Origin: Candidatus Dormibacteria bacterium
GTDB taxonomy: Bacteria; Chloroflexota; Dormibacteria; Aeolococcales; Aeolococcaceae
NCBI GenBank assembly: GCA_046263035.1
Contig: JBHELP010000203.1
Span: forward strand, 1 to 35,278
DNA length: 35,278 nt
Reading direction: 5' to 3'
The notes beneath the pieces are model-generated. The model searched no databases. It saw nothing but the letters and a program-made list of their open reading frames with translations, and had not been told where the DNA came from. Within the stretch, counting starts at the first letter, position 1. Each line of letters begins with the position of its first letter. Of the stretch, positions 995-33,946 are shown piece by piece. The translations under genes and the position numbers were made by a program.

Positions 995-1070
995 TGGCGC
1001 CCCTTGCAGGACTCGAACCTGCGACCTGCCGCTTAGAAGGCGGTTGCTCTGTCCGCTGAGCTAAAGGGGC
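995..1070 (-). tRNA. tRNA-Arg (anticodon TCT)
   Basis: The reverse complement reads GCCCCTT-TA-GCTC..GAGC-A-ACCGC-CTTCTAA-GCGGC-AGGTC-GCAGG-TTCGAGT-CCTGC-AAGGGGC-G-CCA. This is a clean 76-nt cloverleaf with anticodon TCT and an encoded CCA. Confidence 0.93.
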
Positions 1071-1173: not shown

Positions 1174-1251
1174 GGTGGCCATAGCTCAGCCAGGTAGAGC
1201 GCCAGGTTGTGGCCCTGGAGGTCGCGGGTTCGAGCCCCGCTGGCCACCCCA
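1174..1251 (+). tRNA. tRNA-His (anticodon GTG) with encoded G-1
   Basis: It reads G(-1)-GTGGCCA-TA-GCTC..GAGC-G-CCAGG-TTGTGGC-CCTGG-AGGTC-GCGGG-TTCGAGC-CCCGC-TGGCCAC-C-CCA. The extra 5' G pairs with discriminator C, which is the His identity feature. Confidence 0.93.
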
Positions 1252-1292: not shown

Positions 1293-3233
1293 CTACTTGC
1301 GGATCTGTCCCGACAGGTATGGCTGGGGGTCGACGATGCCGCCGCTCAACCTCGTCTCGAAGTGGACGTGGGGACCGGTGGAGTTTCCCGTCGAGCCCTC
1401 GAGGCCGATGGCGTCCCCCTGGTGCACCGTTTGCCCCGGTTTGACGGCGATGGTGTCCAGGTGTCCGTACACCGTGGTCAGGCCCCCGGCATGGGCGATG
1501 GCCACGTAGTTGCCGTAGCCCACCAGGCGCCCCTGCTCGTCAACGCTGGCGGTGGCAAGGATGACCCGGCCGTCCGCCGCCGCATGAACCGGCGTGTCCA
1601 GCGGGGCGGCGATGTCCAGGCCGGTGTGAAAGTGCGGATAGAAGATCCCGTTGTGGGTGGCGGGAGCCTCGAAGGGTAGATCGTTGGGTCCGAAACCAAG
1701 GGTGAGCGCACCTCCCAGGGGAGTGATAAGAGTGGGCCGGCCTGCGGCCTTCAGCAGCTTCGACGCCGGCGGGGGGCCCTGTGCCTGTGAGAGGCTCTCA
1801 GCGGCTTTGATCGCGTTCTCCTGCGAGAGCTGCGACTCGACGACCGAGAGGTTGAAGGCGACCGCAGCTCTGGCCTCCGGAGGGCCGGAGGCCGCGGCGG
1901 CGAGCAGCTCGACCCGCTGCGCCGGGTCCGCGGCCGCGGCGGCGAACAGCTGGTACTCGCTCTCCAGCGCCCTCTGATACGCCACCAGCGCGCTCTGATG
2001 ATCACCGACAACGCGTGCAAGGTCGGCCGTGGCTCCGGGGGAGGGGGCGGCGAGGGCGGTCGGAGCCGGCGACGGGCTGGGTGGCATGGGCGTGGTGGTG
2101 GGCGAACTGACGCCGGGGCTGGGGCTCGTGCTGGTCGGGGTCGCCGGGGCGGCCCCCGGGGCGGCCCCCGGGGACCCGGGGACGGCTGCTGCTCGTGGAT
2201 CGCCAAGGCGCTGGGTGAGGGTGGCGACCCGCGCTTCCTGGCGGGCCAGCTCCTGCTGGTGGGTGTCCAGATTCTGCTCGATGCTGACCAACCGGGCCCA
2301 CGTCGAGGAGGCGGACGACGCCGGAGCGTGCAGGCGCGTGACGAAGAGCGTCTGGACACTGGGGACCCGGGCTGATGCAACTGGTGGGACGCGGGCTGCC
2401 TGGATGAGATCTCCGGCGGCACGAACGCCGGTCACCAGGAAGACTCCGACGGGGGCTGCGAGCGAGACCAGAGCCAGCCGCGCCGTCCACAGTCGAGCCG
2501 CGCGCAGGTCGACGAAGCGGTGCATGAGGCTTCGGGCGGCCGTCGGCACGGCGCTCGGCGAGCTCATTGCCTCCTCGGGCCGCCGGCGCCTGCGCCGAAG
2601 TACCAGCCCTGCGCCCACGAGTGCAAGGGCCGCGCCACCACCGCTTATGTATGGCACCAGGCTTGTGGCGCGGGCCGCCACGGAAGCCCCACCGCCGGCT
2701 GCCCTTTCGGAGGCATGCTTGATCAGGAAATGGCGCAGGAAGGGCCGGTCGGCGGTGGCCGGGTGCTCGATGATGGCGCTGACCTGTCCGGCCAGCACTG
2801 GGTCATCGACGATTCCCAGGATCGCCAGACGAGCGGCCGCAACCGCCGCCGTGGGCGGCGGTGAGGGAGCGCCGGGTGCCTTGGCTGCCTCCGGAGGTGC
2901 GCCTGACGGCCCAATGGTGGCGGGAGCCGGGGCACCGGGTGGCGGTTGGCCGGCGGCCACCGCCGGCGCGGGACCGCTCGAGGGTGCAGCCGTCGGCGTG
3001 GGGTTTGCTGCGGCGGTGGGTTTGGCAGTGGGGGGCGGAGTCGATGGGGGAGCAGTGGGCGGAGGGGTCGGTGTGGGCGTGGGGCAGGGGATCAGTGGGT
3101 TGCAGGGCAGCTGCGCGTGTCCCGTCAGCGCACCGGAGAGGGGTAGGACGCAGGCGATTGCCCACACCGCCACCGCTCCGGCGGCCCTGGCGGGGCGTGC
3201 CGAATTACCTCTCCACATACGTCCCCTTCTCAT
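1293..3233 (-). CDS. membrane-anchored coiled-coil M23 (LytM) metallopeptidase, paralogue 1
   Basis: The ORF runs to ATG 3287. I prefer ATG 3233 (MRRGRMWRG..), which has GGAG 9 nt upstream and is followed directly by a signal-like helix. The C-terminus carries M23 motifs HTGLDIAAP, GYGNYVAIAH and GSTGNSTGPHVHFE. Confidence 0.85.
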   Translation of the reverse strand: MRRGRMWRGNSARPARAAGAVAVWAIACVLPLSGALTGHAQLPCNPLIPCPTPTPTPPPTAPPSTPPPTAKPTAAANPTPTAAPSSGPAPAVAAGQPPPGAPAPATIGPSGAPPEAAKAPGAPSPPPTAAVAAARLAILGIVDDPVLAGQVSAIIEHPATADRPFLRHFLIKHASERAAGGGASVAARATSLVPYISGGGAALALVGAGLVLRRRRRRPEEAMSSPSAVPTAARSLMHRFVDLRAARLWTARLALVSLAAPVGVFLVTGVRAAGDLIQAARVPPVASARVPSVQTLFVTRLHAPASSASSTWARLVSIEQNLDTHQQELARQEARVATLTQRLGDPRAAAVPGSPGAAPGAAPATPTSTSPSPGVSSPTTTPMPPSPSPAPTALAAPSPGATADLARVVGDHQSALVAYQRALESEYQLFAAAAADPAQRVELLAAAASGPPEARAAVAFNLSVVESQLSQENAIKAAESLSQAQGPPPASKLLKAAGRPTLITPLGGALTLGFGPNDLPFEAPATHNGIFYPHFHTGLDIAAPLDTPVHAAADGRVILATASVDEQGRLVGYGNYVAIAHAGGLTTVYGHLDTIAVKPGQTVHQGDAIGLEGSTGNSTGPHVHFETRLSGGIVDPQPYLSGQIRK

Positions 3234-3310
3234 GATGTCCGACTCCATGGTAGGGGACGATCGCCCTCTGGAGTCACCGGTGCGCATCCGGTGACGGCGG
3301 CGTCACGCTC

Positions 3311-5152
3311 CTATCGGAGGTGGAGAACGCCTCTCAGATAGGGGGCGGGATCCACGGCCGACCCGTTCACCCTGGTCTCGAAGTGGAGGTGGGGACCGGT
3401 CGAGTTGCCGGTGGAGCCCTCATGGCCGATCACGGCCCCCTGCTCGACGGTCTGCCCTGGCTTGACGTTGATGCTGTCCAGGTGGCCATACACCGTGGTG
3501 AACCCGTTGCCGTGCGAGATGGCCACGTAGCGACCGTAGCCCACGAGCTGGCCTCCATCTCCGACGCTTGCCGCTGCCAGGATCACCCTGCCCCCCGCCG
3601 CGGCATGCACTGGAGTGCCCTCCGGCGCGGAGATGTCGATGCCGGTGTGGAAATGCTCGAAGAAGCGGCCGTTGCGGCTCACCGGCGGCTCAAAGGATAG
3701 CGAGGTGGGTCCGAAGCCCTGCTCGATGGCTCCGCCCATTGGCGAGATCAGCGTGGGACGGCCGACTGAGCGCAGCAGGGAGGTGATCGGGTCGGTGCGG
3801 GGCGCGGCGGCCTCGGCCGCGGCCAGGGCCGCCTCCTGGTTCTTCTGCGCCTCGACCACATCGAGGTCGTACTTCACCGCCGGCGCCGCATCCGGGTGGC
3901 CGGACGCCGCAGCCACCGCCACCAGATTGTGGCGAACGGGGGGGCTCTGAACCGCCCCCTGGAAGAACTCGTACTCGGACTGCAGCAGCTTGTCATAGAC
4001 CGCGACGGCGACCTCATGCGCGCTCACCAGCTGCTGCAGCTGGGCCTGCAGCTGGGGTGCCCGAGGTGAGTTGGGAGGTTCGGACTGGAGGGCGCCGCTC
4101 AGCCGGCTCACGCCGGCCTCCTGGGCGGTGAGATCGTTGCGCTGCTTCTCGAGGTTCTGCTCGATGGTCACAAGCTGGCTCCAGTCCGCCGACAGGGCCG
4201 CCTGGGTGATGCCCGCGGTCAGGGCGCCGGCATTGACCACCGGCGCCTGGGTGGGGAGGGGTGCTCCACGGTGGCCGAAGCTGCCCACCCTGGATGCCGG
4301 GACAGGTGAGGAAGAGGAACGGTTTGACACGGACACCGCAAACCCGGCGACGATAACGGTGGCGGGCACCAGCACACCTACCACGGTCATAAGGCGGCTG
4401 CGCGATTGCAGGCGCGGTCGGGCGATGACCGAGGGGCGACGCCCCCACCAGGCCGGCGCAGACAGCTGTGGCAAGCGTCGACGGGCGACCGGCGTTCGCG
4501 CTGGTGGCTCGGCTCCCGCCGGCGCCGCAGCGGCCCGCAGGACAAGCCGCCGAAGGCGCACCGGGAGGCACGCGCGGAGCAACGACAGATGACCTGCAAG
4601 GGCACCGGCGCCGCCGAGGCGGAGGACGCGGCGGCTGGTGCCCCGGATATACAGAAGCGCCCCGAGCAGACCGCCGACAAGCAGGGCCATCGTCACCAGG
4701 GCGGCGACCGACGAGCGGGACGTGCCGCCGCTGGCGGTGGGCTTGGCGGTGGCGTGGGTGGCGGCCGTGGGCATGGCCTTGAAATGAAGGAGCGACGGCC
4801 GTTCGGCTGCCACGGGATGCTGGAGAACCTCGGTGACCTTCCTGGACAGCGCGGGGTCGTCGATGACGCCCGTGACCCCGAGGGCGCCGCGAGCGACCGG
4901 TTTCGGACTGGGTGTGGGTGAGGCTGTTGGGGGGGTGGGCTTGGCCGCGGTGGTGGTCCCTGGCGGTGGCTTGGCGCCCGGTGCCGCCGTTGGCGGGGGG
5001 GCGGCCGTGCACAGCGGGGGGGCCACCAGGGGCGCACATGGTATGGGCAGATCCGCTGCCCGCGGTGTGGACGTGGCGGCGAGCGCAAGCCCCGATGCCA
5101 GCACGATGCCGGCCACCGCCACCGACCCCCTCGGCCTGGCGGCGCGCCTCAA
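3311..5152 (-). CDS. membrane-anchored coiled-coil M23 (LytM) metallopeptidase, paralogue 2
   Basis: It has the same architecture as the neighbouring gene, with motifs HTGIDISAP, GYGRYVAISH and GSTGNSTGPHLHFE. The start is TTG at 5152 with GGGGGGAA about 8 nt upstream, and the N-terminus is signal-like (MRRAARPRGSVAVAGIVLASGLALAA). Confidence 0.85.
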   Translation of the reverse strand: MRRAARPRGSVAVAGIVLASGLALAATSTPRAADLPIPCAPLVAPPLCTAAPPPTAAPGAKPPPGTTTAAKPTPPTASPTPSPKPVARGALGVTGVIDDPALSRKVTEVLQHPVAAERPSLLHFKAMPTAATHATAKPTASGGTSRSSVAALVTMALLVGGLLGALLYIRGTSRRVLRLGGAGALAGHLSLLRACLPVRLRRLVLRAAAAPAGAEPPARTPVARRRLPQLSAPAWWGRRPSVIARPRLQSRSRLMTVVGVLVPATVIVAGFAVSVSNRSSSSPVPASRVGSFGHRGAPLPTQAPVVNAGALTAGITQAALSADWSQLVTIEQNLEKQRNDLTAQEAGVSRLSGALQSEPPNSPRAPQLQAQLQQLVSAHEVAVAVYDKLLQSEYEFFQGAVQSPPVRHNLVAVAAASGHPDAAPAVKYDLDVVEAQKNQEAALAAAEAAAPRTDPITSLLRSVGRPTLISPMGGAIEQGFGPTSLSFEPPVSRNGRFFEHFHTGIDISAPEGTPVHAAAGGRVILAAASVGDGGQLVGYGRYVAISHGNGFTTVYGHLDSINVKPGQTVEQGAVIGHEGSTGNSTGPHLHFETRVNGSAVDPAPYLRGVLHLR

Positions 5153-5333: not shown

Positions 5334-6766
5334 TCAGCGGAGCCGGGTGCCACCCATGAGGATCTCATCACAGCCGCGAGCGGCGTTGCGTCCCTCGGCA
5401 ATCGCCCAGACGATGAGCGATGCTCCGCGGTGCGCATCGCCGGCAGCGAAGACCCCGGGCACCGAGGTCTGGAAGTGTTCGTCGACAGCGACGTTGCCGC
5501 GGCCGTCCAGGGTGGCCCCGAGCTCTTCGAGCAGCCCGGTGTGCACCGGATGGACGAAGCCCATGGCCAGCAGCACGAGGTCCGCCTCGACGGTGAACGC
5601 AGTGCCGGGTACCTCCACCAGCCCCCGCCGACCGTCCACCGTGCGCGGCTCCACGCGGACGCCGTGAAGCCGCTCCACGTGGCCATCGTGACCACTGAAC
5701 CGGACGGTCTGGATGCTGTAATCGCGAGAGCCGCCCTCCTCGTGCGCCGAGGATGTGCGCATCACCAGGGGCCAGCTCGGCCAGGGGTTGCCGAAGGGGC
5801 GCTCATCGGGAGGCCGGGGCATGAGCTCGTACTGCTCCACGGACCGGCAGCGCTCGCGAAGGACGTTGCCCAGGCAATCAGCGCCGGTGTCCCCGCCACC
5901 CAGGATGATCACGCGCCTGTGCCGGGCGGTGATCTCATCGGCGCCGGGAATGTCCTCGCCGGCAACACGGCGGTTCTGCTGCGAGAGGTAGTCCATGGCG
6001 AGATGGATCCCCTGGAGCTGCCGTCCGGGAACGTCCAGCTCACGCGGCTGACCCGCGCCGATGGCAATGATAAGGGCGTCGTGGCTGCCGCGCAGATCGT
6101 CGAGGGCGACGTCGACGCCCACCTCGCACCCCGTCTCGAATAGCACCCCCTCGGCCCGCATGAGCTCCAGGCGCCGATCAACCAGCCATTTCTCGATCTT
6201 GAAATCCGGTATTCCATAACGGAGGAGGCCGCCAATCCGGTCCGATCTCTCGAGGACGGTGACCGTGTGTCCGGCGGAATTGAGTTGCTGCGCGGCGGCC
6301 AGGCCCGCCGGCCCGGAACCGATGACGGCGATCCGGCGGCCGGTGCGATGCGCAGGGGGCTGGGGCGTCACCCATCCCTCGGCAAAGGCCCGGTCGGCAA
6401 TTGACTGCTCGATGCGCTTGATGGTCACCGGCTCGTCGTTGATCGAGAGGACGCAGGCCGGCTCGCAGGGCGCAGGACACAGCCGTCCCGTGAACTCCGG
6501 GAAATTGTTGGTCAGATGGAGGCGATCGATCGCGCCCCGCCAGTCGTCCCGGTAGACGAGATCGTTCCACTCCGGTATGAGGTTGCCGAGCGGGCAGCCG
6601 CTGTGGCAGAACGGCACACCGCAGTCCATGCAGCGGGCACCCTGGTCCCGAACCGCCACCGGTGCGTCGGGGAGATACACCTCGCGGTAATCGCCCACGC
6701 GCTCATCGATGGGTCGCCGGGGCTGCGCCTGGCGGTGGATCCTGACGAAGCCTCCCAGCTCCCCCA

Positions 6767-6767
<1 letters not shown>
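5334..6767 (-). CDS. gltD: glutamate synthase (NADPH) small subunit
   Basis: It shows the GltD hallmarks RCMDCGVPFCHSGCPLGN, RLCPAPCEPAC and VIGSGPAGLAAA, with a C-terminal FAAGD. The start ATG shares one nt with the gltB stop (TGATG at 6765-6769). Confidence 0.93.
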
Positions 6768-11308
<4,541 letters not shown>

Positions 11309-11394
11309 TGTGGTGATGGTGAAGGGCGCTCGGATCCGGGACCAGCCCCTGTATAGCCCCCCGGCCGGTTCCCCCGGGGACACCAACTGGACAG

Positions 11395-11411
11395 CTAACA
11401 CTACCGAAAAC
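11395..11411. promoter_or_regulatory. GlnR-box-like element upstream of gltB
   Basis: The plus strand reads cTAAC-actacc-GAAAAC. This resembles the actinobacterial GlnR a-site/b-site pattern gTnAc-n6-GaAAc and lies about 90 nt upstream of ATG 11308. Confidence 0.25.
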
Positions 11412-11503
11412 CGGTCTCGGCAGCGCACCGTGGCCTCCGCCAGGGGCTACCATGCCGCCCGACGCCCACCACCGATGCACCGCCCACGCCACCCCGGCCC
11501 GCG

Positions 11504-11637: not shown

Positions 11638-12401
11638 CGGGCCGCCGTACCGCGCCCGTGCGGCCGCCCGGTCGGCAACGGGCATCCCTACGGCCGCCGG
11701 GTCGGCTGCGACCCTGGTGGCTGTCACCCCTCAGCGTCCTGGTGGCGCTCGGTGGCTTCGGTCTCTACGGTGTCTGGACGGCTCTCGTCGCCGGCCGCTC
11801 GGAGTTCGGACCCTACCTGTCACCCTTTTTCTCGCCCCGGCTGGGCGGCATGGGCAGCGTCTCACCCGCCCTGTGGATCCTGCCCATCCCGCTGCTCTTC
11901 CGCACCAGCTGCTACCACTACCGCAAGGCCTACCACCGATCGTTCTTCGGCCATCCGCTGGCCTGCGGCCGTCCGGAGGGGCGGCGGCGGAGCTACCGTG
12001 GCGAGACGCGACTCCCGCTGTCCCTCAACAACCTTCATCGCCTGGCCCTTTATCTGTCACTTATCGTGCTCGCCTTCCTCTGGGTGGATGCACTGGAGTC
12101 GTTCTCCAGCGGAGGCCGTGCCCGTGTGGGGCTTGGATCCCTTCTGATGCTTCTCAATGTCATCCTGCTCAGCGGCTACACCCTGGGATGCCACTCCCTG
12201 CGCCACCTGGCCGGTGGCGGCCTGGACTGCTATTCCCGTGCCCGTTGCGGGACCGCTCGGCGCGGCGCCTGGCGGGGGGTCACTGCGCTCACCGCCCGGC
12301 ATGGGGTGTGGGCCTGGTCCAGCCTTGCCGGCGTTGTGGCCGTGGATGTCTACATCCGCGCTCTCCAGCATGGTCTGGTCGACGCCCACATCGGCGGCTG
12401 A
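11619..12401 (+). CDS. sdhC: succinate dehydrogenase/fumarate reductase membrane anchor (about 5 TM)
   Basis: This is the in-frame ATG 11619 of ORF 11181..12401. It has about five hydrophobic helices and sits first in a C-A-B gene order. Its stop overlaps the flavoprotein start (TGATG at 12399-12403). The family call rests on context and size. Confidence 0.6.
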   Translation: MSAEPSAGRRTAPVRPPGRQRASLRPPGRLRPWWLSPLSVLVALGGFGLYGVWTALVAGRSEFGPYLSPFFSPRLGGMGSVSPALWILPIPLLFRTSCYHYRKAYHRSFFGHPLACGRPEGRRRSYRGETRLPLSLNNLHRLALYLSLIVLAFLWVDALESFSSGGRARVGLGSLLMLLNVILLSGYTLGCHSLRHLAGGGLDCYSRARCGTARRGAWRGVTALTARHGVWAWSSLAGVVAVDVYIRALQHGLVDAHIGG

Positions 12402-14158
12402 TGGGGGAGCCTCACGACACGCATGACTGCGACGTCCTGGTGATCGGTGCGGGGGGCGCGGGATTGCGAGCCGCCATTGCGGCGGCGGAGTCCGGTGCCA
12501 GCACCACCGTGGTCTCCAAGTCCCTGCTGGGCAAGGCCCACACTGTGATGGCGGAGGGGGGCATAGCGGCGGCGCTCGGCGGGGTCGACGCCGAGGACGA
12601 TTGGGAGACCCACTTCGCCGACACCATGCTCGGTGGCCAGATGATCAACAACTGGCGCATGGTGGACATCTATGCCCGGGAGGTGATCGAGCGGGTCCAC
12701 GAGCTGGAGCGGTGGGGCGGCCTCTTCGACCGCACCGATGTCGGCCGGATCCTCCAGCGCGCCTTTGGCGCGCACAGCTGGAGACGGCTATGCCACGTCG
12801 GCGATCGCACCGGCCTCGAGCTCATCCGCACCCTGCAGGACCGCGTCGTGGCCAGCGACGGAGTGCGCATCCACATGGAACACACGGTCACCACGCTGCT
12901 CAGGGAGGGCGAGACGATCGCCGGCGCCCTCGCCTATCGGCGCGGGGACGGCGGCTTCGTGGTCTACCGGGCGGGGGCGGTGGTCCTCGCCGGCGGAGGG
13001 TGGGGCCGCATGTACCGGCACACCTCCAACTCGTGGGAGGGGGTCGGCGATGGTGCCGCCCTGGCTCTTGAGGCTGGCGCCGAGCTCATCGACATGGAGT
13101 TCGTGCAGTTCCATCCCACCGGGATGATGTGGCCGCCCGGGGCGCGGGGCATCCTCGTCACCGAGGCCGTCCGCGGTGAGGGCGGTCACCTCTACAACGC
13201 GGAGGGCAGGCGGTTCATGGCCGACCACGACCCCGAGAAGCTGGAGCTCAGCAGCCGGGACGTCGTGGCTCGGGCGATCCACCGTGAGGTTGAGGAGGGC
13301 CGCGGCAGTCCCCACGGGGGCGCCTTTCTGGACATCCGCCATCGAGGCCCAGAGCACATCCGGCGCACGCTTCCCTCGATGTGTGAGCAGTTCGAGGCGC
13401 TGGCGAGCGTCGACATCACCCGTGAGCCCATGGAGGTGGGACCCACCATCCACTACACCATGGGGGGTGTACGCGTGGATCCCGAGACCGCGGCCACCCG
13501 CGTCGCCGGCCTATACGCCGCCGGCGAAGTGGCCGGCGGCCTCCACGGCGCCAATCGCCTGGGGGGCAACTCGCTCGGCGACATCCTTGTGTTCGGCCGC
13601 CGGGCGGGTCTGGCCGCCGCCGAGTGGGCGACAGCACGGCGGCGGGGCCGGGGGCGGCACGACGCTCAGGCCGTTGCCGCCGGCCAGGCCTCCATGCTGG
13701 CCCCGCTGGACACGTCTCCGCGTGTCGAACCACCGGAGAGCCCGCACCGCCTCCATGAGGCCCTCCAGGATGTCATGCAGGAGGATGCGGGCATTGCCCG
13801 GACGGGCGTGTCCCTTCAGCGCTCGCTCGAGCTCATCGGCGAGCTGGCCGAACGCAGTCGCCGGCTCAGCGTCAGCGGGGGACGCACCTTCAACCCCGGC
13901 TGGCAGGCCTGCCGCGACCTCGCCTGCATGCTCATCGTCTCAGAGGCCATCGTGCGCAGCGCTCTGGCCAGGACTGAGAGCCGTGGAGCCCACTGGAGAT
14001 TGGACTACCCCCAGCGTGACGACGCCGATATGCACAACAACGTGGTCGCCCTGGACACTGTGATGTCGGTGACGGCGGTGGCCGTGGAACCCATGCCGGC
14101 GGAGATCCGATCGCGGCTCTCCAGAAGCCGACTCGCACCTGGGGGCGAGCACCGGTGA
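12401..14158 (+). CDS. sdhA: succinate dehydrogenase/fumarate reductase flavoprotein subunit
   Basis: It has a DVLVIGAGGAGLRAAIAAAE FAD fold plus HPTGM, RGEGG and HYTMGGV motifs. I use the internal ATG 12401 of ORF 11717..14158, because the upstream extension overlaps sdhC. Confidence 0.9.
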   Translation: MGEPHDTHDCDVLVIGAGGAGLRAAIAAAESGASTTVVSKSLLGKAHTVMAEGGIAAALGGVDAEDDWETHFADTMLGGQMINNWRMVDIYAREVIERVHELERWGGLFDRTDVGRILQRAFGAHSWRRLCHVGDRTGLELIRTLQDRVVASDGVRIHMEHTVTTLLREGETIAGALAYRRGDGGFVVYRAGAVVLAGGGWGRMYRHTSNSWEGVGDGAALALEAGAELIDMEFVQFHPTGMMWPPGARGILVTEAVRGEGGHLYNAEGRRFMADHDPEKLELSSRDVVARAIHREVEEGRGSPHGGAFLDIRHRGPEHIRRTLPSMCEQFEALASVDITREPMEVGPTIHYTMGGVRVDPETAATRVAGLYAAGEVAGGLHGANRLGGNSLGDILVFGRRAGLAAAEWATARRRGRGRHDAQAVAAGQASMLAPLDTSPRVEPPESPHRLHEALQDVMQEDAGIARTGVSLQRSLELIGELAERSRRLSVSGGRTFNPGWQACRDLACMLIVSEAIVRSALARTESRGAHWRLDYPQRDDADMHNNVVALDTVMSVTAVAVEPMPAEIRSRLSRSRLAPGGEHR

Positions 14159-18503: not shown

Positions 18504-19815
18504 CCGGCGAGCGCGGCCGACAGAGCTTCGAGTGCCTGATCAGCCTCCGCCTCAGTGAGAACGAGAGGGGGGTTGAGCCGCACCGAGGGAACGTCACCCA
18601 CCGTCAGCAGGCCCCTGTCGAGGCAGCCCCGGAACAGGCGGCGGCAGAGGTCGGGCGACGCGGCGCTCCCGGATTCGGGATCCACCAGGTCGAAGCCGAG
18701 CATCATGCCCGCCCCTCGTGAGGCGGCCAGGTATGGGGAGCAGCGTTCGATCTCCTTGAGTCCCCGGGCCAGCCGGCCGGCGACGGTACTGACATTGTCG
18801 AGGAAGCCGGGCGCCGTGATGATGTCCAGCACGGCAATGCCGGCGACGCAGGCCAGCGGGTTGGCTCCGTAACTGCTCGAGGTGGCCGACGGCTCGGCAA
18901 AGATGCTGCTGTCCCAGAGCCGCGAACCGGCCGCCACGCCGCTGAGCGGGAATCCACCGCCAATGGCCTTGCCGAGCACCAGAATGTCGGGGACGACATC
19001 GAAGTGGTCACACGCGAAGTTGGTGCCCAGACGCCCGAAGCCCGTGATGGACTCGTCGGCGATGAGCAGCCAACCATGCCGGGTGCACGTTTCGCGGAGG
19101 GCCTTGAGGAATCCGCGTTCGGGAGGGCGGTTGCCGGCAGTGCCCAGCACGGGTTCCACCATCACGGCGGCCACGCCGTCGAGCCTGGCGGCAAGACCCT
19201 CGATGGCGACCACTGCCCGGTCTCCCGACTCGGCACAGGCCGGGTAGCTGGTGGCGTCATGGTCGGAGCAGACCGGATAGGGGACGTCGTGCACCCAATC
19301 GATGCCGAGCGCGGCCCGTTCCTCGGGAAAGCGATGCCCGGTGAAACGGACGGCCGCCGTGCGGCCGTGGAAGCCGTCGGTGAAGGAGATGACGTGGCGG
19401 TTGCCGGTGTGGGACTGGGCGAGGCGCACGGCAACCTCGACGGCCTCGGCGCCCCCGGAGTACAGCGCCACACGCTCCAGGCCGGGCGGGAGAAACTCGG
19501 CCAGCGCGGCCAGGTACTCGGCGTGTTCGGGGGTGTGCAGGACGCAGGCGGTGAGACGGGACGCCTGATCTGCCAGCGCCCGTGCGAAGCGCGGATGGCC
19601 GTGGCCGATGGCCGCCACCCCATCGCCGTGGCGAAGTCCAGATATCGCCGGCCTCGCACGTCGACCAGATACGACCCCTCACCGTGGCCGATGATGATGT
19701 CCGCCGACTCGGCGATGCGCCGGGGACCGCCTCCACCGAGACGGCGGATGGTGTCTGGAACCGCCTCGGGGGCGATGGGATCGGTGGACGAGGCGATGTG
19801 GAGCGCTGAATTCAC
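18500..19815 (-). pseudogene. class-III (PLP) aminotransferase, frame-broken at 19618-19621
   Basis: The N-terminal part (GHGEGSYLVDVRGRRYLDFATAMG) is in the frame of ORF 19162..19944. The remainder (AAIGHGHPRF...FHGRT...DESITGFGRLG...LVLGKAIGGG) is in ORF 18500..19618. One extra G in the GGGG run would join them as DFATAMGVAAIGHGHP. Confidence 0.75.
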
Positions 19816-19992
19816 TGGATCTCGCTGGGGCGGGACGGCCGCGCATGGATGGAACCGCCGCAGTGTACGGGGCGTTGCACGTTTCCCGGCCGTCGTCGCG
19901 GACACGCGCATCCAGCAGCGATCATTGGGTACGATGGTTGCCAAGGGGGCGCATCACCGTCAATCTGGCGCTCCCGGCCCAGTTTTCATCGA

Positions 19993-20754
19993 GTGACCGT
20001 CACCTCCTCTGCAAAGCCTGCCCCTCCGGCTGAGACCGGAGAGTTCGCCATTTTCAGCGACCGCCCGGGGGGCGGTGCGGTGCCACAGGCACCGCCGCAG
20101 CGCGCCCAGCTCCCCAACCCGCGCATCACGCGGCCTCAGAACCTGCCCCGTGCCGTCCGCCCGGGAACCGTCCCGGCACCGGACCATCACCACCTTCCCG
20201 GCTGGGTCCGCCGTGCCCACGGACAGGCGCAGCCCATCCTCGCCGACCTGATGGGCGCGCTCGAGGGGGAACGCCGCACCGAGATGAGTGCCAGACTGGA
20301 GGCGTTGGTGGGCAGCATCAGCGCCGGTAAGTTCAGCCAGGCATGGCACTACCCGCGTCTGATCGAGGAGGGCCGGTCCCTGCTCGAGGCGCAGCAACGT
20401 GACAACGCCGAGGCGGCCCGGGCGCGCACCGCTGTGGAGCAGTCCCGGCGCCGCGTGTCCGACCAGCTCCGCGACAACGCCGATCGGCTCCCCTCGGACA
20501 CGGCGGGGCGCCTCGGCCGTGCCCTTCGCTCGGCCACGGACCGCGAGACCGTGGCCGCCGTCGCCCGTGAGGTGGAGGGGGCCGTCGGCAGCGTTCGCAC
20601 CCTGGAGGAGCGCCGTCGGGACCGTGAGATCGGACGAACACGAGCCAAGATCCGCAAAGCGCTTCCCAAGTCCGCTCCTCTGGAGTCCTCGGCTGAGACA
20701 TGGCAGGAAACGCTGCGCCGCTTCGCCGAGCAGCAGGCCGCGCAGGGTTCGTGA
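19993..20754 (+). CDS. hypothetical Arg/Glu/Ala-rich helical protein
   Basis: I use the in-frame GTG 19993 of ORF 19849..20754, because third-position GC is high from about there. The C-terminal ~170 aa look like a coiled coil. The stop overlaps the next start. I recognise no family. Confidence 0.5.
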   Translation: MTVTSSAKPAPPAETGEFAIFSDRPGGGAVPQAPPQRAQLPNPRITRPQNLPRAVRPGTVPAPDHHHLPGWVRRAHGQAQPILADLMGALEGERRTEMSARLEALVGSISAGKFSQAWHYPRLIEEGRSLLEAQQRDNAEAARARTAVEQSRRRVSDQLRDNADRLPSDTAGRLGRALRSATDRETVAAVAREVEGAVGSVRTLEERRRDREIGRTRAKIRKALPKSAPLESSAETWQETLRRFAEQQAAQGS

Positions 20755-21263
20755 CCACAGCCGCGCCGCTCTCCTCGCTCGACCCGGATCGTCTGGCGCC
20801 CGACGCCTCCAACCCCGAGGTGTCGCGACTGATGAGGCCCGAGGTTGTCTTCTGCCTCCCCAGCACCAATATCGACGCCGTGGCAAAGCTCATGGCCGAC
20901 AACGACCTCGGTGAGGTGGCGGTGATCATCGACCGCCGGCCGGTGGGCTTTGTCGAGGCCGGCGATATTCTCGACCGGCTGGCCACCGGTGACGTTGTCA
21001 TCCGCGGCAGCGATTTCGCAGTCCGCCCACCTGTGACCGAGGTGCAGGCCAGGGACCTGCTGCGCTCGCCTCTCGTCCTGGTTGACGAGCATCAACGGAT
21101 CGGCGAGGTCGTCTCCCTGATGCGGCGGCGCGGGCGCAGCCTGGCGCTGGTGATGCACGAGGACGAAACACCCGTGGGCATGGTGACGCCGCGCGAGCTG
21201 GCCGCCTTCTTGGCGGCCGCCCACACCGCCGGGAGCACCATGGCCGGGGCCGGGCATGGCTGA
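20751..21263 (+). CDS. stand-alone CBS-pair (Bateman) domain protein
   Basis: There are two CBS repeats (MRPEVVFCLPSTNIDAVAKLMADNDLGEVAVI..GFVEAGDIL and LLRSPLVLVDEHQRIGEVVSLMRRRGRSLALVM..VGMVTPREL). GTG 20751 overlaps the upstream stop (GTGA). Confidence 0.75.
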   Translation: MTTAAPLSSLDPDRLAPDASNPEVSRLMRPEVVFCLPSTNIDAVAKLMADNDLGEVAVIIDRRPVGFVEAGDILDRLATGDVVIRGSDFAVRPPVTEVQARDLLRSPLVLVDEHQRIGEVVSLMRRRGRSLALVMHEDETPVGMVTPRELAAFLAAAHTAGSTMAGAGHG

Positions 21264-23484
21264 CCTCGAACGGCTCGCCGCGCCGCTGGGCGCCGAATGC
21301 GACCCGAGGGACACCCTCAACGATGTTCTTGGCGCGATGATCGCCCAGCATCCGCTTCCGCTTCTGGTGGTTGGCGATGAGGGGGTCTCCGGAACCATCA
21401 GCCTCGATGCGATCGTGAAGGTGTTCGGCTCCGACCTTGACGCGGTCACCGTGGGTGAGCTGATGCGGCCCGCGCCCAGCCGGGACGCCGGTATCAGCGT
21501 CGACACCGCGGTCACCGCCATGCGCGAGGCGGGGGGGGACACCATGATTGTCACCGAGATCGAGGGAGGCCTGTTCTCGAAGAAGACCCGACCGATCGGG
21601 CTTGTGGGCACGGCCCAGGTGCTCGCCGCCATCGGCAAGAACGTGGTCGACAAGGCGCCCATGAAAATCCTGGCCGGCCACCGCGACTTGGGATTCAACG
21701 TTCCGGTGAGTCCCTGCCAGCGCAACTGTCCCATCAAGCAGGACATCGCCACGTACGTCGATTACGTCAGCCAGGGGCGTTATGTCGATTCCTGGTCGGT
21801 CATCCATGAGACAAACCCCTTCCCGAGCATGCTCGGACGGCTCTGCAACCATCCGTGCGAGACCGACTGCAAGCGGGGCTGGGACCCCAGCGAGGACCCG
21901 GTGACGATCCGGTCGCTGAAGCGGTTCTCCACGGACTTCGCCTTTAAACAGGGGCTGTGGATCGACTACAAGATCGCCGAGAAGAAGGGCCGGCGCGTCG
22001 CCGTGGTGGGGGCGGGTCCCGCGGGGCTGACCGCGGCGCTCGACCTCCAGGTGCAGGGGTACGACGTCACACTCCTCGAACGGGAGGCCAAGGTGGGTGG
22101 CCTGCTCACCACCAGCATCCCGCCGTTCCGGTTCGACCACCACCAGCTCAAGTGGGAGCTGGACATGATCCTGGCCACCGGGATCGAGGTGCGCTGCAAC
22201 AGCAACGTCGGCGAGGGGCCGGACGATGTCAAGCTCGCCGATCTCCTCGAGGAGTTCGACGCTGTGTTCGTCAGCGTGGGCATGATGAAGGGGCGCATCC
22301 TTCCCATCCCAGGGTCGGATCTGCCTCAGGTGACCGACGCCATGACCTTTTTGCGGGTGGTCTCCTACGACACCATCCCGGAGCACTTCCCCGTCCGGGG
22401 ACGGGTGGTCGTCGTGGGTGGCGGAGCCGTCGCCACCGACGCCTGCCAGACGTCGATCAAGATGGGCGCCGCCGACGCCTGGATGTGCGCCATCGAGCCC
22501 GAGGACAAGCTTCCTGCCTTTGGCAATGAGCTTCACGAGGCCAAGGAGATTGGCCTGCACATCGAGTGCGGGATCATCGTCAAGGAGATCCATGCCGATG
22601 CCAGTGGCAATGTCAGCGCCGTGTCCTTCGCGCCCCTGCAGGAATTGGAATTCGATCCCCTGACCGGCAAGCTGATCTTTTCCTCGGTCAAGGAGGCCGA
22701 GGGTGCGGAGCGCCGCCGCATCGAGTGCGACTATGTGATCTTCGCCTCAGGTCAGATCATGGAGAGCCCCGACGAGATGATGCCGCTCACGCCGCGCAAG
22801 CTCATCGCCGCCGATCGCGGTGGTCACACGGGTGTGGGAAAGCTCTTTGCCGGCGGCGATTGCGTGCAGGGCCCGTCGTTCATCGTGGACGCCGTGGGAT
22901 GGGGCCATCGTGTCGCCCGCTCCATCCGTGAGTATCTGGGCGAGGACATGGAGCGTGCCGGCAACCGGCTCTACCAGACGGTCGTCGAGAGGACGGATGA
23001 TCATCGCCAGTCGGAGGTGTTCGTTCGCACCGAGCCCGCCATCCTCCAGGCGGAGAAGCGTTACGACATGTCGGAGTGCGAACTGCCCTGGAGCGATCGC
23101 GAGGCGATCGTTCAGGCCATCCGCTGCTTCCAGTGCGACTCCGTGCACCACTATGACGAGACGGTGTGCGTGCTCTGTGGTGCCTGCGACGACGTCTGCC
23201 CTGAGAAGGCCATCGACGTCGTGGTATTCGGCGAGGATCGCGAGCGGGCCTCGGGCGGGGAGACCCTCGTCTGTGACACCACTGTGGGCGATCCCGTCGC
23301 GGGTGGCGTTGGCGGTGAGATCTACATCAACTACGACCGCTGCACCAACTGCAGGATTTGCGAGGACCATTGCCCGGTGAACTGCATAACCTTCGAGCGG
23401 GTTCGATTCGTGGATGACGCGATGCGCGTTGTCGAGAAGCCGCGGGTGAGCATGGAGCTCCCGGTCGTCGCCTCCGTTCACTGA
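21256..23484 (+). CDS. fusion of a CBS pair, a GltD-like FAD/NAD(P)H oxidoreductase and a 2x[4Fe-4S] ferredoxin
   Basis: The N-terminal CBS pair covers aa ~1-135. The GltD-like core has CQRNCPIKQDI, RLCNHPCETDC, VAVVGAGPAGLTAA, VVVVGGGAVA and FAGGDC. The C-terminus has CVLCGACDDVCP and CTNCRICEDHCP. It overlaps the upstream gene by 8 nt. Confidence 0.85.
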   Translation: MADLERLAAPLGAECDPRDTLNDVLGAMIAQHPLPLLVVGDEGVSGTISLDAIVKVFGSDLDAVTVGELMRPAPSRDAGISVDTAVTAMREAGGDTMIVTEIEGGLFSKKTRPIGLVGTAQVLAAIGKNVVDKAPMKILAGHRDLGFNVPVSPCQRNCPIKQDIATYVDYVSQGRYVDSWSVIHETNPFPSMLGRLCNHPCETDCKRGWDPSEDPVTIRSLKRFSTDFAFKQGLWIDYKIAEKKGRRVAVVGAGPAGLTAALDLQVQGYDVTLLEREAKVGGLLTTSIPPFRFDHHQLKWELDMILATGIEVRCNSNVGEGPDDVKLADLLEEFDAVFVSVGMMKGRILPIPGSDLPQVTDAMTFLRVVSYDTIPEHFPVRGRVVVVGGGAVATDACQTSIKMGAADAWMCAIEPEDKLPAFGNELHEAKEIGLHIECGIIVKEIHADASGNVSAVSFAPLQELEFDPLTGKLIFSSVKEAEGAERRRIECDYVIFASGQIMESPDEMMPLTPRKLIAADRGGHTGVGKLFAGGDCVQGPSFIVDAVGWGHRVARSIREYLGEDMERAGNRLYQTVVERTDDHRQSEVFVRTEPAILQAEKRYDMSECELPWSDREAIVQAIRCFQCDSVHHYDETVCVLCGACDDVCPEKAIDVVVFGEDRERASGGETLVCDTTVGDPVAGGVGGEIYINYDRCTNCRICEDHCPVNCITFERVRFVDDAMRVVEKPRVSMELPVVASVH

Positions 23485-23515: not shown

Positions 23516-23974
23516 ATGCCCGTCCCTGACCTGGCGCTCATGCGCCATGCCCTGAGACTTGCGCGTTCCGGCGCCCGGCGCGGTGAGGTGCCGGTCGGCG
23601 CGCTGGCGGTTCGCCAGGGCACGGTGATTGCGGCGGCTTCCAACCGTGTGGAGAGGAGCGGCGACGCCACCGCCCATGCCGAGATGCTGGTGCTGCGGCG
23701 GGCGGCGCACGTGATCGGCGACTGGAGGCTGAGTGGGGTCACCCTGGTGGCCACCCTGGAACCCTGCCCGATGTGCGCCGGTGCCATCATCGCGGCCCGG
23801 GTGGATCGATGCCTGTACGGTGCCCGCGACACCCGCAAGGGGGCTGACGGAAGTGCCTACGACGTCCTGCGTCGCCCGGCCGGTGACCACCGGGTCATGG
23901 TTGCGGAGGGCGTTCTCGGGCCTGAGTGCGGAGCCTTGCTGAGCGACTTCTTCCGGAGCCTACGGCGCCGGTGA
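23516..23974 (+). CDS. tadA: tRNA-specific adenosine deaminase
   Basis: It has the CDA-fold zinc motifs HAEM and PCPMCAGA, is ~150 aa as expected, and has GAGGG about 7 nt upstream of the ATG. Confidence 0.9.
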   Translation: MPVPDLALMRHALRLARSGARRGEVPVGALAVRQGTVIAAASNRVERSGDATAHAEMLVLRRAAHVIGDWRLSGVTLVATLEPCPMCAGAIIAARVDRCLYGARDTRKGADGSAYDVLRRPAGDHRVMVAEGVLGPECGALLSDFFRSLRRR

Positions 23975-32658: not shown

Positions 32659-33946
32659 CTCGATCACGCTGCTGTCTCCGTGAGTGTCGGCGGGGCTTCG
32701 GTGTCGACGGTGGTGTATGACCGGCTGAGCGACTCCACGCCCATGTAGCGTCGGGCGACAGCCCACTCGTCGTTCTGCTCGGCGAGCAGGGCTCCCACCA
32801 GGCGGATGATCGCTTCGCGGTTGGGGAAGATGCCAACCACGTCGGTGCGCCGGCGTACCTCCTTGTTGAGCCGCTCCTGAGGGTTGTTGGACCAGATCTG
32901 TCGCCAGTGCTCCTTGGGGAAGCTGGTGAAGGCGAGGATCTCCTCGGCGGCGTCGCCGAGCATCACCGCGGCCTCCGGGAACTTCTCCTCGAGCTGCTCC
33001 ACCACACGACGGAGCTGGGCCCAGGTGGTGTCGCCATCGGGCTGGGCGAAGATGGACCGCACGATCGTCGCCACCACCGCGTGCGCCGACTTGGGCACGC
33101 GGGTGAGGAGATTGCGCATGAAGTGGGTCCGACACCGCTGCCAGCCGGCTCCGGGAAGGGTGGCGGCGATGGCGTTCTTGAGCCCCTCGTGAGCGTCGGA
33201 GATCACCAGTCGGACGCCACTGAGCCCACGGGCGACCAGGCCGCGGATGAACGCCGTCCAAGCGGCACCATCCTCGCTGGTAACCACGTCCACACCAAGA
33301 ACTTCGCGCTTGCCGTCCGTGGTGACGCCGGTGGCCAGAACGACGCAGACGTTGACGATGCGACCGCCCTCACGGACGCGCTGGGTGAGGGCGTCGATCC
33401 ACACGTACGGGTAGCCGGCAGGACCGAGGGGACGACTCCGAAAGCTCTCCACCATCTCGTCGAGCTCTTGGGCCATCACGCTCACCTGGGACTTGGAGAG
33501 CCGCTCGATGCCCAGCGTCTGCACCAGGCCTTCGACCCGCCGAGTCGAGACGCCACGCAGGTAGCACTCCGCCACCACGGCCACCAGAGCACGCTCCGAG
33601 CGTCGCCGTGGCTCGAGCAGCCAATCGGGGAAGTAGCTGCCCGTGCGCAGCTTGGGAATGGCCAGTTCGATGCTGCCCGCCCGGGTATCCCAGGTCCGCT
33701 CCCGGTAGCCGTTGCGCGAGTTCACCCGCTCGGGCGTGCGCTCGCCGTACTGGGCGCCGCAGAGGGCGTCGGCCTCAGCGTTCATGAGCGCTCCCGTGAA
33801 GGTGGAAACCATCTCGCGAAGCAGGTCGACGTCCGCCGACTCCACCTGCTTGCGAAACCAGGTCAGATGGTCCATGCTGGTCGTGGCCACTGTTGTCTCC
33901 TTGAGGTTGGTAGAGCTTCATCAAGGATGGCGCAGTGGTCGTTCTT
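32626..33946 (-). mobile_element. IS256-family insertion sequence (~1.32 kb)
   Basis: The transposase gene is flanked by imperfect terminal inverted repeats. The left is AAGAACGACCGACGCCATCGG (32626 onward) and the reverse complement of the right is AAGAACGACCACTGCGCCATCC (33946 downward). The size fits the family. I found no direct target duplication. Confidence 0.7.
32664..33890 (-). CDS. IS256-family (mutator-type) transposase
   Basis: It is 408 aa. Family-typical blocks are ALCGAQYGERTPERVNSRNGYRERTWDTRAGSIELAIPKLRTGSYFP, VWIDALTQRVREGGRI and LVISDAHEGLKNAI. AAGGAGA lies 5 nt upstream of GTG 33890. Confidence 0.9.
   Translation of the reverse strand: MATTSMDHLTWFRKQVESADVDLLREMVSTFTGALMNAEADALCGAQYGERTPERVNSRNGYRERTWDTRAGSIELAIPKLRTGSYFPDWLLEPRRRSERALVAVVAECYLRGVSTRRVEGLVQTLGIERLSKSQVSVMAQELDEMVESFRSRPLGPAGYPYVWIDALTQRVREGGRIVNVCVVLATGVTTDGKREVLGVDVVTSEDGAAWTAFIRGLVARGLSGVRLVISDAHEGLKNAIAATLPGAGWQRCRTHFMRNLLTRVPKSAHAVVATIVRSIFAQPDGDTTWAQLRRVVEQLEEKFPEAAVMLGDAAEEILAFTSFPKEHWRQIWSNNPQERLNKEVRRRTDVVGIFPNREAIIRLVGALLAEQNDEWAVARRYMGVESLSRSYTTVDTEAPPTLTETAA

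Follow-up and report, generated by a model that had tools for sequence, protein, structure and literature searches.

Pairs of CBS domains (Bateman modules) bind adenosyl ligands and regulate the enzyme to which they are attached or with which they are partnered. Known regulators of this kind include AMPK gamma, IMPDH and CBS-PPase, which act in cis, the plant CBSX proteins, which act in trans on thioredoxins, and the stand-alone protein Rv2626c/Hrp1. Plant CBSX proteins are free CBS pairs and proposed modulators of redox enzymes (PMC7921703, PMC10643993). Among flavo-iron-sulfur oxidoreductases, stand-alone NfnB-like proteins have been shown to be monofunctional ferredoxin:NADP+ oxidoreductases (PMC12221290), and a putative NAD(P) (nicotinamide adenine dinucleotide (phosphate)) oxidoreductase has been placed on the cytoplasmic face of the unusual Rieske/cytochrome b complexes of anammox bacteria, for which NAD(P)H formation by bifurcation has been proposed (PMC12954380). 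Here we describe three genes at positions 19993-23484 of a 35,278-nucleotide stretch of Candidatus Dormibacteria DNA (contig JBHELP010000203.1; the whole stretch is called the window below), coding for a helical protein (gene 1), a free Bateman protein (gene 2) and a CBS-fused flavo-iron-sulfur oxidoreductase (gene 3). We consider it fairly probable that this operon is typical of the class Dormibacteria and that its core is the coupled gene 2/gene 3 pair, forming a ligand-gated NAD(P)H:iron-sulfur electron-transfer enzyme.

The window has a G+C content of about 68%, and the best protein matches of its genes come from Candidatus Dormibacteria. The three open reading frames (ORFs) lie side by side on the plus strand, and their two overlaps were read directly from the sequence:

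19993..20754, plus strand: gene 1, 253 amino acids, GTG start
20751..20754, plus strand: GTGA, in which the stop of gene 1 overlaps the start of gene 2
20751..21263, plus strand: gene 2, 170 amino acids, GTG start
21256..21263, plus strand: 8-nucleotide ATGGCTGA overlap of the gene 2 stop and the gene 3 start
21256..23484, plus strand: gene 3, 742 amino acids, ATG start, CBS-fused flavo-iron-sulfur oxidoreductase

For gene 1, the GTG at 19993 is favoured over the GTG at 20080 chosen by the gene caller (224 amino acids, P0121), because the N-terminus 'MTVTS' is common to the homologues P0123, P0147 and P0197 (52-62% identity). The start of gene 2 at GTG 20751 lines up with the 'MTTTP...' of a homologue, and the GTGA overlap is therefore real. 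In the plus-strand frame of gene 1 the G+C fractions at the three codon positions were 0.76/0.58/0.82; the corresponding values were 0.74/0.48/0.85 in gene 2, 0.66/0.43/0.85 in gene 3 and, for comparison, 0.74/0.49/0.83 in the gltD gene of the window. These patterns are gene-like, and all three genes are coding and conserved. Long antisense ORFs at 19960-20886, 20349-21752 and 20998-22593 showed the wrong codon-position pattern and were rejected as high-GC artefacts. Scans for promoters, terminators and Rfam families around the operon gave no matches.

Conservation of the operon was assessed in loci collected by a one-genome-per-species scan with the fusion-specific linker (DKAPMKIL-type), which returned 62 loci (58 Dormibacteria-type and 4 Limnocylindria-type), and by exact look-ups, which added five and brought the total to 67. 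Gene 2 was found directly upstream of gene 3 in every one of these, and the junction was tight in about 62 of 65 loci, lying at -8 (A/GTGCCTGA-type), -1 (TGATG), +2 or +3 nucleotides; the exceptions resemble frameshifted assemblies. The conserved translationally coupled unit is the gene 2/gene 3 pair, gene 1 and the downstream tadA gene being class-specific additions. The pair is kept universally in the CBS-fused clade, and gene 3 proteins share 75-79% identity within Dormibacteria and 56-58% with those of the Limnocylindria type; the pair therefore probably carries a central function.

The product of gene 3 is composed of the following parts, all encoded on the plus strand:

21256..21639, plus strand: divergent Bateman module, residues 1-128 (family profile, AlphaFold)
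21709..21954, plus strand: Fer4_20 with two core [4Fe-4S] clusters, residues 152-233 (Pfam, 69.8 bits, cut-off 25.8)
21985..22941, plus strand: flavin adenine dinucleotide (FAD) and NAD(P)H Rossmann domains, residues 244-562 (Pfam Pyr_redox_2, 81.3 bits, cut-off 26.1)
23098..23139, plus strand: EAxxQAIRCFQCD, the GltD-type EAxRCxxC ligand motif, residues 615-628 (C624 and C627 100% conserved)
23152..23394, plus strand: 2x[4Fe-4S] ferredoxin domain, residues 633-713 (two Pfam Fer4 matches above cut-off, and Fer4_7)

Residues 1-128 stayed below the gathering score of PF00571 (14.8 bits vs a cut-off of 24, E 0.036). A profile of 18 gene 3 N-termini (A3) matched CBS proteins of solved structure over its positions 5-125, with E values from 3.6e-9 to 1e-3, and the AlphaFold model of the full protein folds residues 1-128 into two beta-alpha-beta-beta-alpha units with a predicted local distance difference test (pLDDT) score of 85-91 (about 88 overall). 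Judged by profile and model, the fused Bateman module is real but divergent. Its second CBS domain lacks the canonical S/T-x-x-D ribose motif and has S-x-x-Q in Dormibacteria.

The flavin core of gene 3 contains the FAD motif VAVVGAGPAGL, the NAD(P) motif VVVVGGGAVATDA and the segment FAGGDCV, all aligned to solved structures, and it aligns with the GltD-like domains of NfnABC, StnC, NfnB and GltD at E 1e-40 to 1e-65; the same proteins are the top Foldseek matches. The EAxRCxxC motif does not precede Fer4_20 in gene 3 and stands instead, as REAIVQAIRCFQCD, after the flavin core. The same post-flavin placement was seen in StnC and in every PRK12771-type relative examined, and the canonical GltD of the window carries the motif at its N-terminus; the arrangement in gene 3, StnC and the PRK12771-type relatives is in effect a circular-permutation-like relocation of two cluster ligands. 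Among 112 homologues, C154, C158, C197, C201, C205, C624, C627, the eight ferredoxin cysteines of the two CxxCxxCxxxCP motifs (C638/641/644/648 and C696/699/702/706), C673 and C710 were 99-100% conserved, and E202 was invariant. From the alignment to DPD, GltD and StnC we infer C154, C158, C197, C201, C205, E202, C624 and C627 as the eight ligands of the two core clusters; counting those of the ferredoxin domain, FAD and a total of four [4Fe-4S] clusters are expected in the enzyme. Between the two ferredoxin motifs lies a highly conserved 37-residue insert (GEDRERxSGGxxxVCxT...GG, residues 659-690, roughly 23230-23325), which includes the invariant C673 and is specific to the CBS-fused clade. 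At the end of strand beta2 of the NAD(P) domain, the Y-R-R of NfnB gives way in gene 3 to A-I-E-P, of which E414 is invariant; the relatives of gene 3 have YRR or LE(S/T), and the GltD of the window has Y-E-L. As NADPH-dependent GltD is also acidic at the I-E-P position, a preference for NADH or NADPH is not callable from this site.

Gene 2 was matched by Pfam CBS (PF00571) with 69.3 bits (cut-off 24) in two stretches, and its product is a Bateman module and nothing more:

roughly 20820-20984, plus strand: first CBS domain of gene 2 (Pfam CBS)
roughly 21030-21221, plus strand: second CBS domain of gene 2 (Pfam CBS)

Solved CBS proteins such as MJ1225, Rv2626c and MgtE were among its matches, and the motifs G-h-V-x-x-x-D-I (G-h-h-x-x-x-D) and G-M-x-T-x-R-E (T-x-x-E) are kept; on inspection, its ribose-contact motifs are more canonical than those of the fused module of gene 3. 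Gene 2 proteins of Dormibacteria carry an N-terminal extension (LDPDRLAPDAxNP) and an insert between the CBS domains, both of which are missing from Limnocylindria-type gene 2. A recent duplication linking gene 2 and the N-terminus of gene 3 was considered and rejected, as BLASTP gave E 0.4 and no paralogy was detectable beyond the common fold. In strand beta1 of the first CBS domain, both modules have at the same relative position a cysteine with a conservation of at least 95% (C35 of gene 2, 20853-20855, and C15 of gene 3, 21298-21300), for which a thiol or redox role is conceivable.

The functional model that we favour builds on domain content, conservation of cofactor ligands, coupling of genes 2 and 3, taxonomic range and family relationships, all of which were observed. 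Gene 3 would be an NAD(P)H-linked electron-transfer enzyme of NfnB/GltD/PRK12771-like type, in which hydride from NAD(P)H would reduce the FAD; single electrons would then pass through the two core [4Fe-4S] clusters, held by Fer4_20 and the relocated EAxRCxxC motif, to the C-terminal 2x[4Fe-4S] ferredoxin domain, the presumed port to an external partner, and the reverse reaction would also be possible. The gene 2 protein and the N-terminal module of gene 3 would form a heteromeric CBS assembly that binds an adenosyl ligand (adenosine mono-, di- or triphosphate, S-adenosylmethionine or an NAD-type ligand) and would thereby gate the flow of electrons in response to the energy or metabolite state. 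Bateman modules normally pair; because of this habit, the coupling of gene 2 to gene 3 and the more canonical motifs of gene 2, a heteromeric assembly is the simplest model. Gene 1 would be a lineage-specific helical accessory added in Dormibacteria, perhaps an adaptor, scaffold or modulator, and TadA a co-located housekeeping passenger. Cofactor preference, direction of electron flow, partner, ligand, the heteromeric CBS contact and any role of gene 1 are the parts of this model that we infer.

Several points weigh against the favoured model, which for this clade is built on sequence and predicted structure. Given the S-x-x-Q in its second CBS domain, the fused module may bind no ligand at all, and its contact with the gene 2 protein is deduced from gene coupling and from the pairing habit of Bateman modules. 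The 2'-phosphate motif Y-R-R of NfnB is replaced by I-E-P, and the iron-sulfur regions of the AlphaFold model of gene 3 are of low confidence. Moreover, no ferredoxin-dependent enzyme, Rieske protein or cytochrome b was found in the window or in 66 of the 67 loci; the ferredoxin domain of gene 3 resembles a port at which a partner not encoded nearby would dock or electrons would leave.

The reach of the family was determined by an exhaustive HMMER search of 1.84 billion representatives clustered at 50% identity, in which P0241 (58% identity) was the only other full-length representative matching gene 3 from residue 4; the CBS-fused form is thus confined to one cluster at 50% identity. The next relatives, 33-36% identical over residues 151-718, start at about query residue 150 and hence lack the CBS module; they are PRK12771-like proteins with generic names from anammox Planctomycetes, Nitrospirae, Tectomicrobia and Alphaproteobacteria. 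The NCBIfam model NF009410 (PRK12771) gave 386.1 bits on gene 3 against a cut-off of 516, with residues 151-713 corresponding to profile positions 47-562 of 566, and on these scores gene 3 is related to PRK12771 but outside the curated family. Automated annotation already flags a CBS domain in places (P0039) and otherwise assigns the name 'FAD-dependent oxidoreductase'. Our literature searches found no description of a CBS-fused GltD/NfnB-like enzyme or of PRK12771, and the possibility raised in the preliminary description of this DNA, that orthologues with the same fusion already belong to a characterised named family, did not materialise, as no such family was found.

Nine genomic contexts of the relatives without the CBS fusion were sampled, and six of them adjoin cytochrome b (X denotes the gene 3 relative):

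L077, Brocadiaceae-type: Rieske, X, cytochrome b, subunit-IV-like protein and two multihaem cytochromes, which is the kuste4569-4574 order
L069/L070, Nitrospirae: free CBS protein (L069 5439-5834), X, Rieske, cytochrome b
L074: histidine kinase and response regulator (2448-4797), X, Rieske, cytochrome b, cytochrome c
L075: X, Rieske, cytochrome b, cytochrome c
L076: free cyclic nucleoside monophosphate (cNMP)-binding protein (146-649), X, cytochrome b
L068, Dehalococcoidia: X with a fused receiver domain (1429-3621; P0267), cytochrome b

Among the other three, one relative lies by a 2-oxoacid:ferredoxin oxidoreductase, one by c-type cytochromes and one alone. N-terminal to the core or just upstream of it several of the relatives thus have a sensor slot, filled by a CBS protein in trans, a cNMP-binding protein in trans, a receiver domain in cis or an adjoining histidine kinase with response regulator; in the operon described here CBS modules fill it both in cis and in trans. 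Because these interchangeable sensors stand at the same place, the N-terminal or upstream module is considered regulatory, and the repeated attachment of different sensors to one core suggests ligand-gated electron flow, a type of control for which no literature description was found in the gene 3 family. A broader scenario can be put forward only tentatively, and as a whole we think it rather improbable: the free and the fused Bateman modules would form a heteromeric four-CBS sensor switching a four-cluster flavoenzyme on or off by the status of adenylate or another adenosyl metabolite; the ancestor of the enzyme would be the arm that reduces NAD(P) in Rieske/cytochrome b complexes; the family would be a regulated electron 'valve' linking the NAD(P)(H) pool with low-potential or membrane carriers, equipped with CBS, cNMP-binding or receiver sensors depending on the lineage; and in Dormibacteria gene 1 would be an adaptor to a new partner, possibly tied to the persistence physiology of these bacteria.

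The same contexts bear on the strongest of the rival explanations, namely that gene 3 belongs, as a peripheral arm that reduces NAD(P) or oxidises NAD(P)H, to a cytochrome b-type membrane complex whose other genes lie elsewhere in the genome, as proposed for Kuste4570/Kustd1483, with the CBS modules controlling the diversion of electrons from a quinol-oxidising complex to NAD(P)+. In line with this, the closest relatives without the CBS fusion adjoin cytochrome b, with or without Rieske, in six of the nine sampled contexts, one of them in the exact kuste4569-4574 order and another with a free CBS gene immediately upstream, and the proposed role of the subunit has been described (PMC12954380). 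However, tblastn with eight Rieske and cytochrome b queries gave no match anywhere in the 35-kb window, and only one of the 67 CBS-fused loci had a match in its flanks, which was not adjacent. In addition, the CBS-fused clade is distinct and tight and may have been recruited to another partner, and even for the anammox subunit the role is no more than a proposal. We judge this explanation unlikely for the locus. The sole cytochrome b-like flank gene of the CBS-fused clade (L052 655-1239, plus strand) lies about 3.5 kb upstream of gene 1 and is not conserved elsewhere.

Gene 1 codes for an Arg/Glu/Ala-rich, all-helical protein with a variable, Pro/Ala-rich N-terminus (alignment of 28 sequences). 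At E<=1e-3 it has 201 homologues, a number that rises to 294 in a profile search, and with 34 invariant residues the family is conserved at the coding level. The matches listed were all 'hypothetical' proteins of Dormibacteria without a Pfam domain; a profile of the core, with the low-complexity N-terminus trimmed, found none outside this class among the matches listed. A non-helical segment holds an invariant motif:

20161..20214, plus strand: invariant motif P-x3-P-x-P-x-H-x-H-L-P-G-W-V-R-R, gene 1 residues 57-74 (alignment of 28 sequences)

P57, P61, P63, H65, H67, L68, P69, W71, V72, R73 and R74 of this motif were invariant in the 28 sequences, in which a C-terminal ETWQDVLRRFAE was also conserved. 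In the AlphaFold model (mean pLDDT 86) the motif has pLDDT values of 87-96 and residues 70-252 form helices. Pfam and NCBIfam contained no family matching gene 1 at E<=0.1, a profile search of PDB sequences gave nothing significant (best match ATP synthase b, E 0.43), and no PDB fold was found at E<=0.001 (best Foldseek E 0.25). Assignments as a PspA/Vipp1-like protein, phasin, ATP synthase b or anti-sigma factor were rejected, as there was no Pfam or NCBIfam match and the PDB offered only ATP synthase b at E 0.43; the fold candidates proposed by Foldseek were coiled-coil adhesin fragments only (E>=0.25). The preliminary description had read from the sequence alone three same-strand genes with overlaps at 20751-20754 and 21256-21263, a helical gene 1 product of no known family, a gene 2 product consisting of a Bateman module only, and a gene 3 product in which a Bateman module is fused to an FAD/NAD(P)H core ending in two CxxCxxCxxxCP motifs. 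All of this agrees with the results above, with the addition that the CBS pair of gene 3 is divergent, and its reservation that gene 1 might show no coding-level conservation has been removed by the size of the gene 1 family and its invariant residues.

The genomic neighbours of the trio and the canonical glutamate synthase genes of the window are positioned as follows:

23516..23974, plus strand: tadA, coding for tRNA adenosine(34) deaminase, 31 nucleotides after gene 3 (NCBIfam TadA, 155.8 bits, cut-off 150)
6767-11428, minus strand: gltB, canonical, elsewhere in the window
5334-6767, minus strand: gltD, canonical, elsewhere in the window

In the window, a class-III aminotransferase gene lies upstream of the operon and tadA downstream. 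In Dormibacteria, gene 1 was present on the same strand upstream of the pair in every locus with enough DNA, directly in 54 cases and at 0.7-2.2 kb in two; tadA followed gene 3 in all 49 Dormibacteria loci with at least 600 nucleotides downstream, within about 270 nucleotides in 46 of them, the usual gap being 6-141 nucleotides (L006-L063). TadA is linked to gene 3 as tightly as gene 1 is, and tadA may be co-transcribed with the operon. A divergent amino-acid permease gene stands between the aminotransferase gene and gene 1 in most Dormibacteria relatives (30 of the 58 loci); it is missing from the window (region 19619-19992, compared with L001 4384-6573 and 30 other loci), so that here the aminotransferase gene abuts gene 1.

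This synteny, together with the overlapping stop and start codons in the window and the fact that the extension and inter-CBS insert of gene 2 are absent where gene 1 is absent, could be explained if genes 1, 2 and 3 formed an obligate three-subunit complex of fixed stoichiometry, a new redox- or ligand-sensing module. We regard this as quite unlikely. Gene 1 is missing from all seven Limnocylindria-type loci that keep the gene 2/gene 3 pair, the GTGA overlap of genes 1 and 2 is confined to a subclade of about 14 loci besides the window (the remaining loci have spacings of about 0-150 nucleotides, apart from two outliers that lie further away), the equal linkage of TadA means that class-wide synteny alone is no sign of a complex, and translational coupling does not fix stoichiometry. 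The expectation of the preliminary description that the three genes are made in fixed stoichiometry is thus not upheld, only the gene 2/gene 3 junction being conserved, and joint conservation of the trio, which it had named as a check, holds for Dormibacteria loci with enough upstream DNA but fails in the Limnocylindria-type loci, which have the pair without gene 1. It was right that no GltB-, NfnA- or PreA-like gene stands next to gene 3 in the window, and it overlooked the equally tight linkage of TadA. That the gene 2 extension and insert occur where gene 1 occurs, a weak correlation across two clades, is at most hinting at a gene 1-gene 2 interaction.

In the Limnocylindria-type loci, a ccsA/resC gene for system II cytochrome c biogenesis follows gene 3 directly in all five distinct cases (L003, L064-L067), overlapping it or lying a few nucleotides away (e.g. 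L066 8201-9199; TIGR03144, 234.9 bits, cut-off 187.6), and a link between the reductase and haem handling is possible. That the gene 2/gene 3 pair feeds reductant to cytochrome c biogenesis, for haem or thiol reduction at CcsA/ResC, is nevertheless very unlikely: the synteny is confined to one class, ccsA is adjacent in none of the 58 Dormibacteria loci, and we know of no precedent for a reductase feeding CcsA/ResC.

Hardly tenable, finally, is the identity suggested by automated annotation, formate dehydrogenase beta or an alternative glutamate synthase small subunit; Joint Genome Institute (JGI) names do include 'formate dehydrogenase beta subunit' and NCBIfam GltD-type models do give 199-251 bits, but these scores lie far under the curated cut-offs of 447-946 bits, FdhA, molybdopterin or GltB genes adjoin gene 3 in none of the 67 loci, and a canonical gltBD pair is present elsewhere in the window. 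Gene 3 scored 207 bits against TIGR01317 (cut-off 447.7) and 199 bits against TIGR01318 (cut-off 483), and its scores for AegA and YgfK were also below cut-off. A glutamate synthase small subunit was rejected on these scores and on the position of GltB, which lies at a distance of 10 kb and has a GltD partner of its own, in agreement with the preliminary description, which had excluded glutamate synthase on the same grounds of an absent neighbour and a separate gltBD pair. Further identities discarded were a bifurcating NfnAB (no NfnA, the PyrK-like FAD/[2Fe-2S] subunit, was adjacent or fused in the neighbourhoods), the NADP-dependent formate dehydrogenase beta of the JGI name (no molybdopterin or tungstopterin FdhA near the gene in the window or in related loci) and DPD (scores below curated cut-offs, partner genes absent).

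Elsewhere in the window, a Mutator-family transposase gene (32664-33890, minus strand; Pfam Transposase_mut, E 1e-136) lies near the 3' end in a region of about 62% G+C. Two tandem paralogous large proteins ending in M23 peptidase domains are encoded at 1293-3287 and 3311-5152 on the minus strand, beside genes for tRNA-Arg (995-1070, minus strand) and tRNA-His (1175-1251, plus strand). An 813-amino-acid succinate dehydrogenase/fumarate reductase flavoprotein ORF (11717-14158, plus strand) has its FAD domain from residue 239 onwards; probably translation really begins well downstream of the listed start, or else the ORF runs on from a membrane subunit encoded upstream.

Hardly any members of Dormibacteria and Limnocylindria, two lineages abundant in soil, have been cultured, and their redox physiology is known from gene inventories only. 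For gene 3, the annotation as 'formate dehydrogenase beta subunit' is wrong. Its kinship with the anammox Rieske/cytochrome b subunit ties it to the question of whether bifurcation in these complexes yields NAD(P)H, and the soluble-looking, CBS-fused gene 3 protein could be an easier one in which to study how that module is regulated and what redox chemistry it performs.

The preliminary description had been unable to map the arrangement onto a described system. The enzyme core does have such a counterpart: it maps onto the proposed NAD(P) oxidoreductase subunit of Rieske/cytochrome b complexes and onto NfnB-like ferredoxin:NADP+ oxidoreductases, and the label 'self-contained' given to the gene 3 enzyme is unproven. 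The Kuste4570/Kustd1483 type shares with gene 3 the C-x3-C-P Fer4_20 half, the FAD and NAD(P) domains, the post-flavin EAxRCxxC and the C-terminal 2x[4Fe-4S] domain, and some of its members also have an adjoining sensor protein; it differs in having no fused Bateman module and in being encoded beside Rieske and cytochrome b, gene 3 being the opposite on both counts. In the NfnB/Cac_0764-type ferredoxin:NADP+ oxidoreductases, electron transfer between NADP(H) and ferredoxin has been shown (PMC12221290). Unlike gene 3, these enzymes lack both a CBS module and a fused ferredoxin domain and carry their CxxC ligands at the N-terminus; NfnB moreover depends on NfnA, and there is no NfnA near gene 3.

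The best matches among solved structures (E 1e-58 to 1e-65) were the GltD-like domains of StnC/NfnABC, from Bfu-type bifurcating transhydrogenases (PDB 8oh5, 9bov, 9n5u), and the alignment takes in the post-flavin 'RCxxC' segment; in those proteins, however, a formate-dehydrogenase-like module is joined to the domain and NuoE/F-like subunits cooperate with it, whereas gene 3 is accompanied by none of these. GltD itself has the same fold and cofactors, but gene 3 falls below the family cut-offs and has no adjoining GltB. Compared with the Bateman regulators (AMPK gamma, IMPDH, CBSX and others), gene 2 is like the stand-alone CBS structures, including Rv2626c. No described system with a free and a fused Bateman module on one iron-sulfur flavoenzyme was found in the literature. 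While the chemistry of the core is predictable, what is new here is that one Bateman module in cis is combined with another in trans, that an orphan helical protein accompanies them and that sensors are swapped on a common core.

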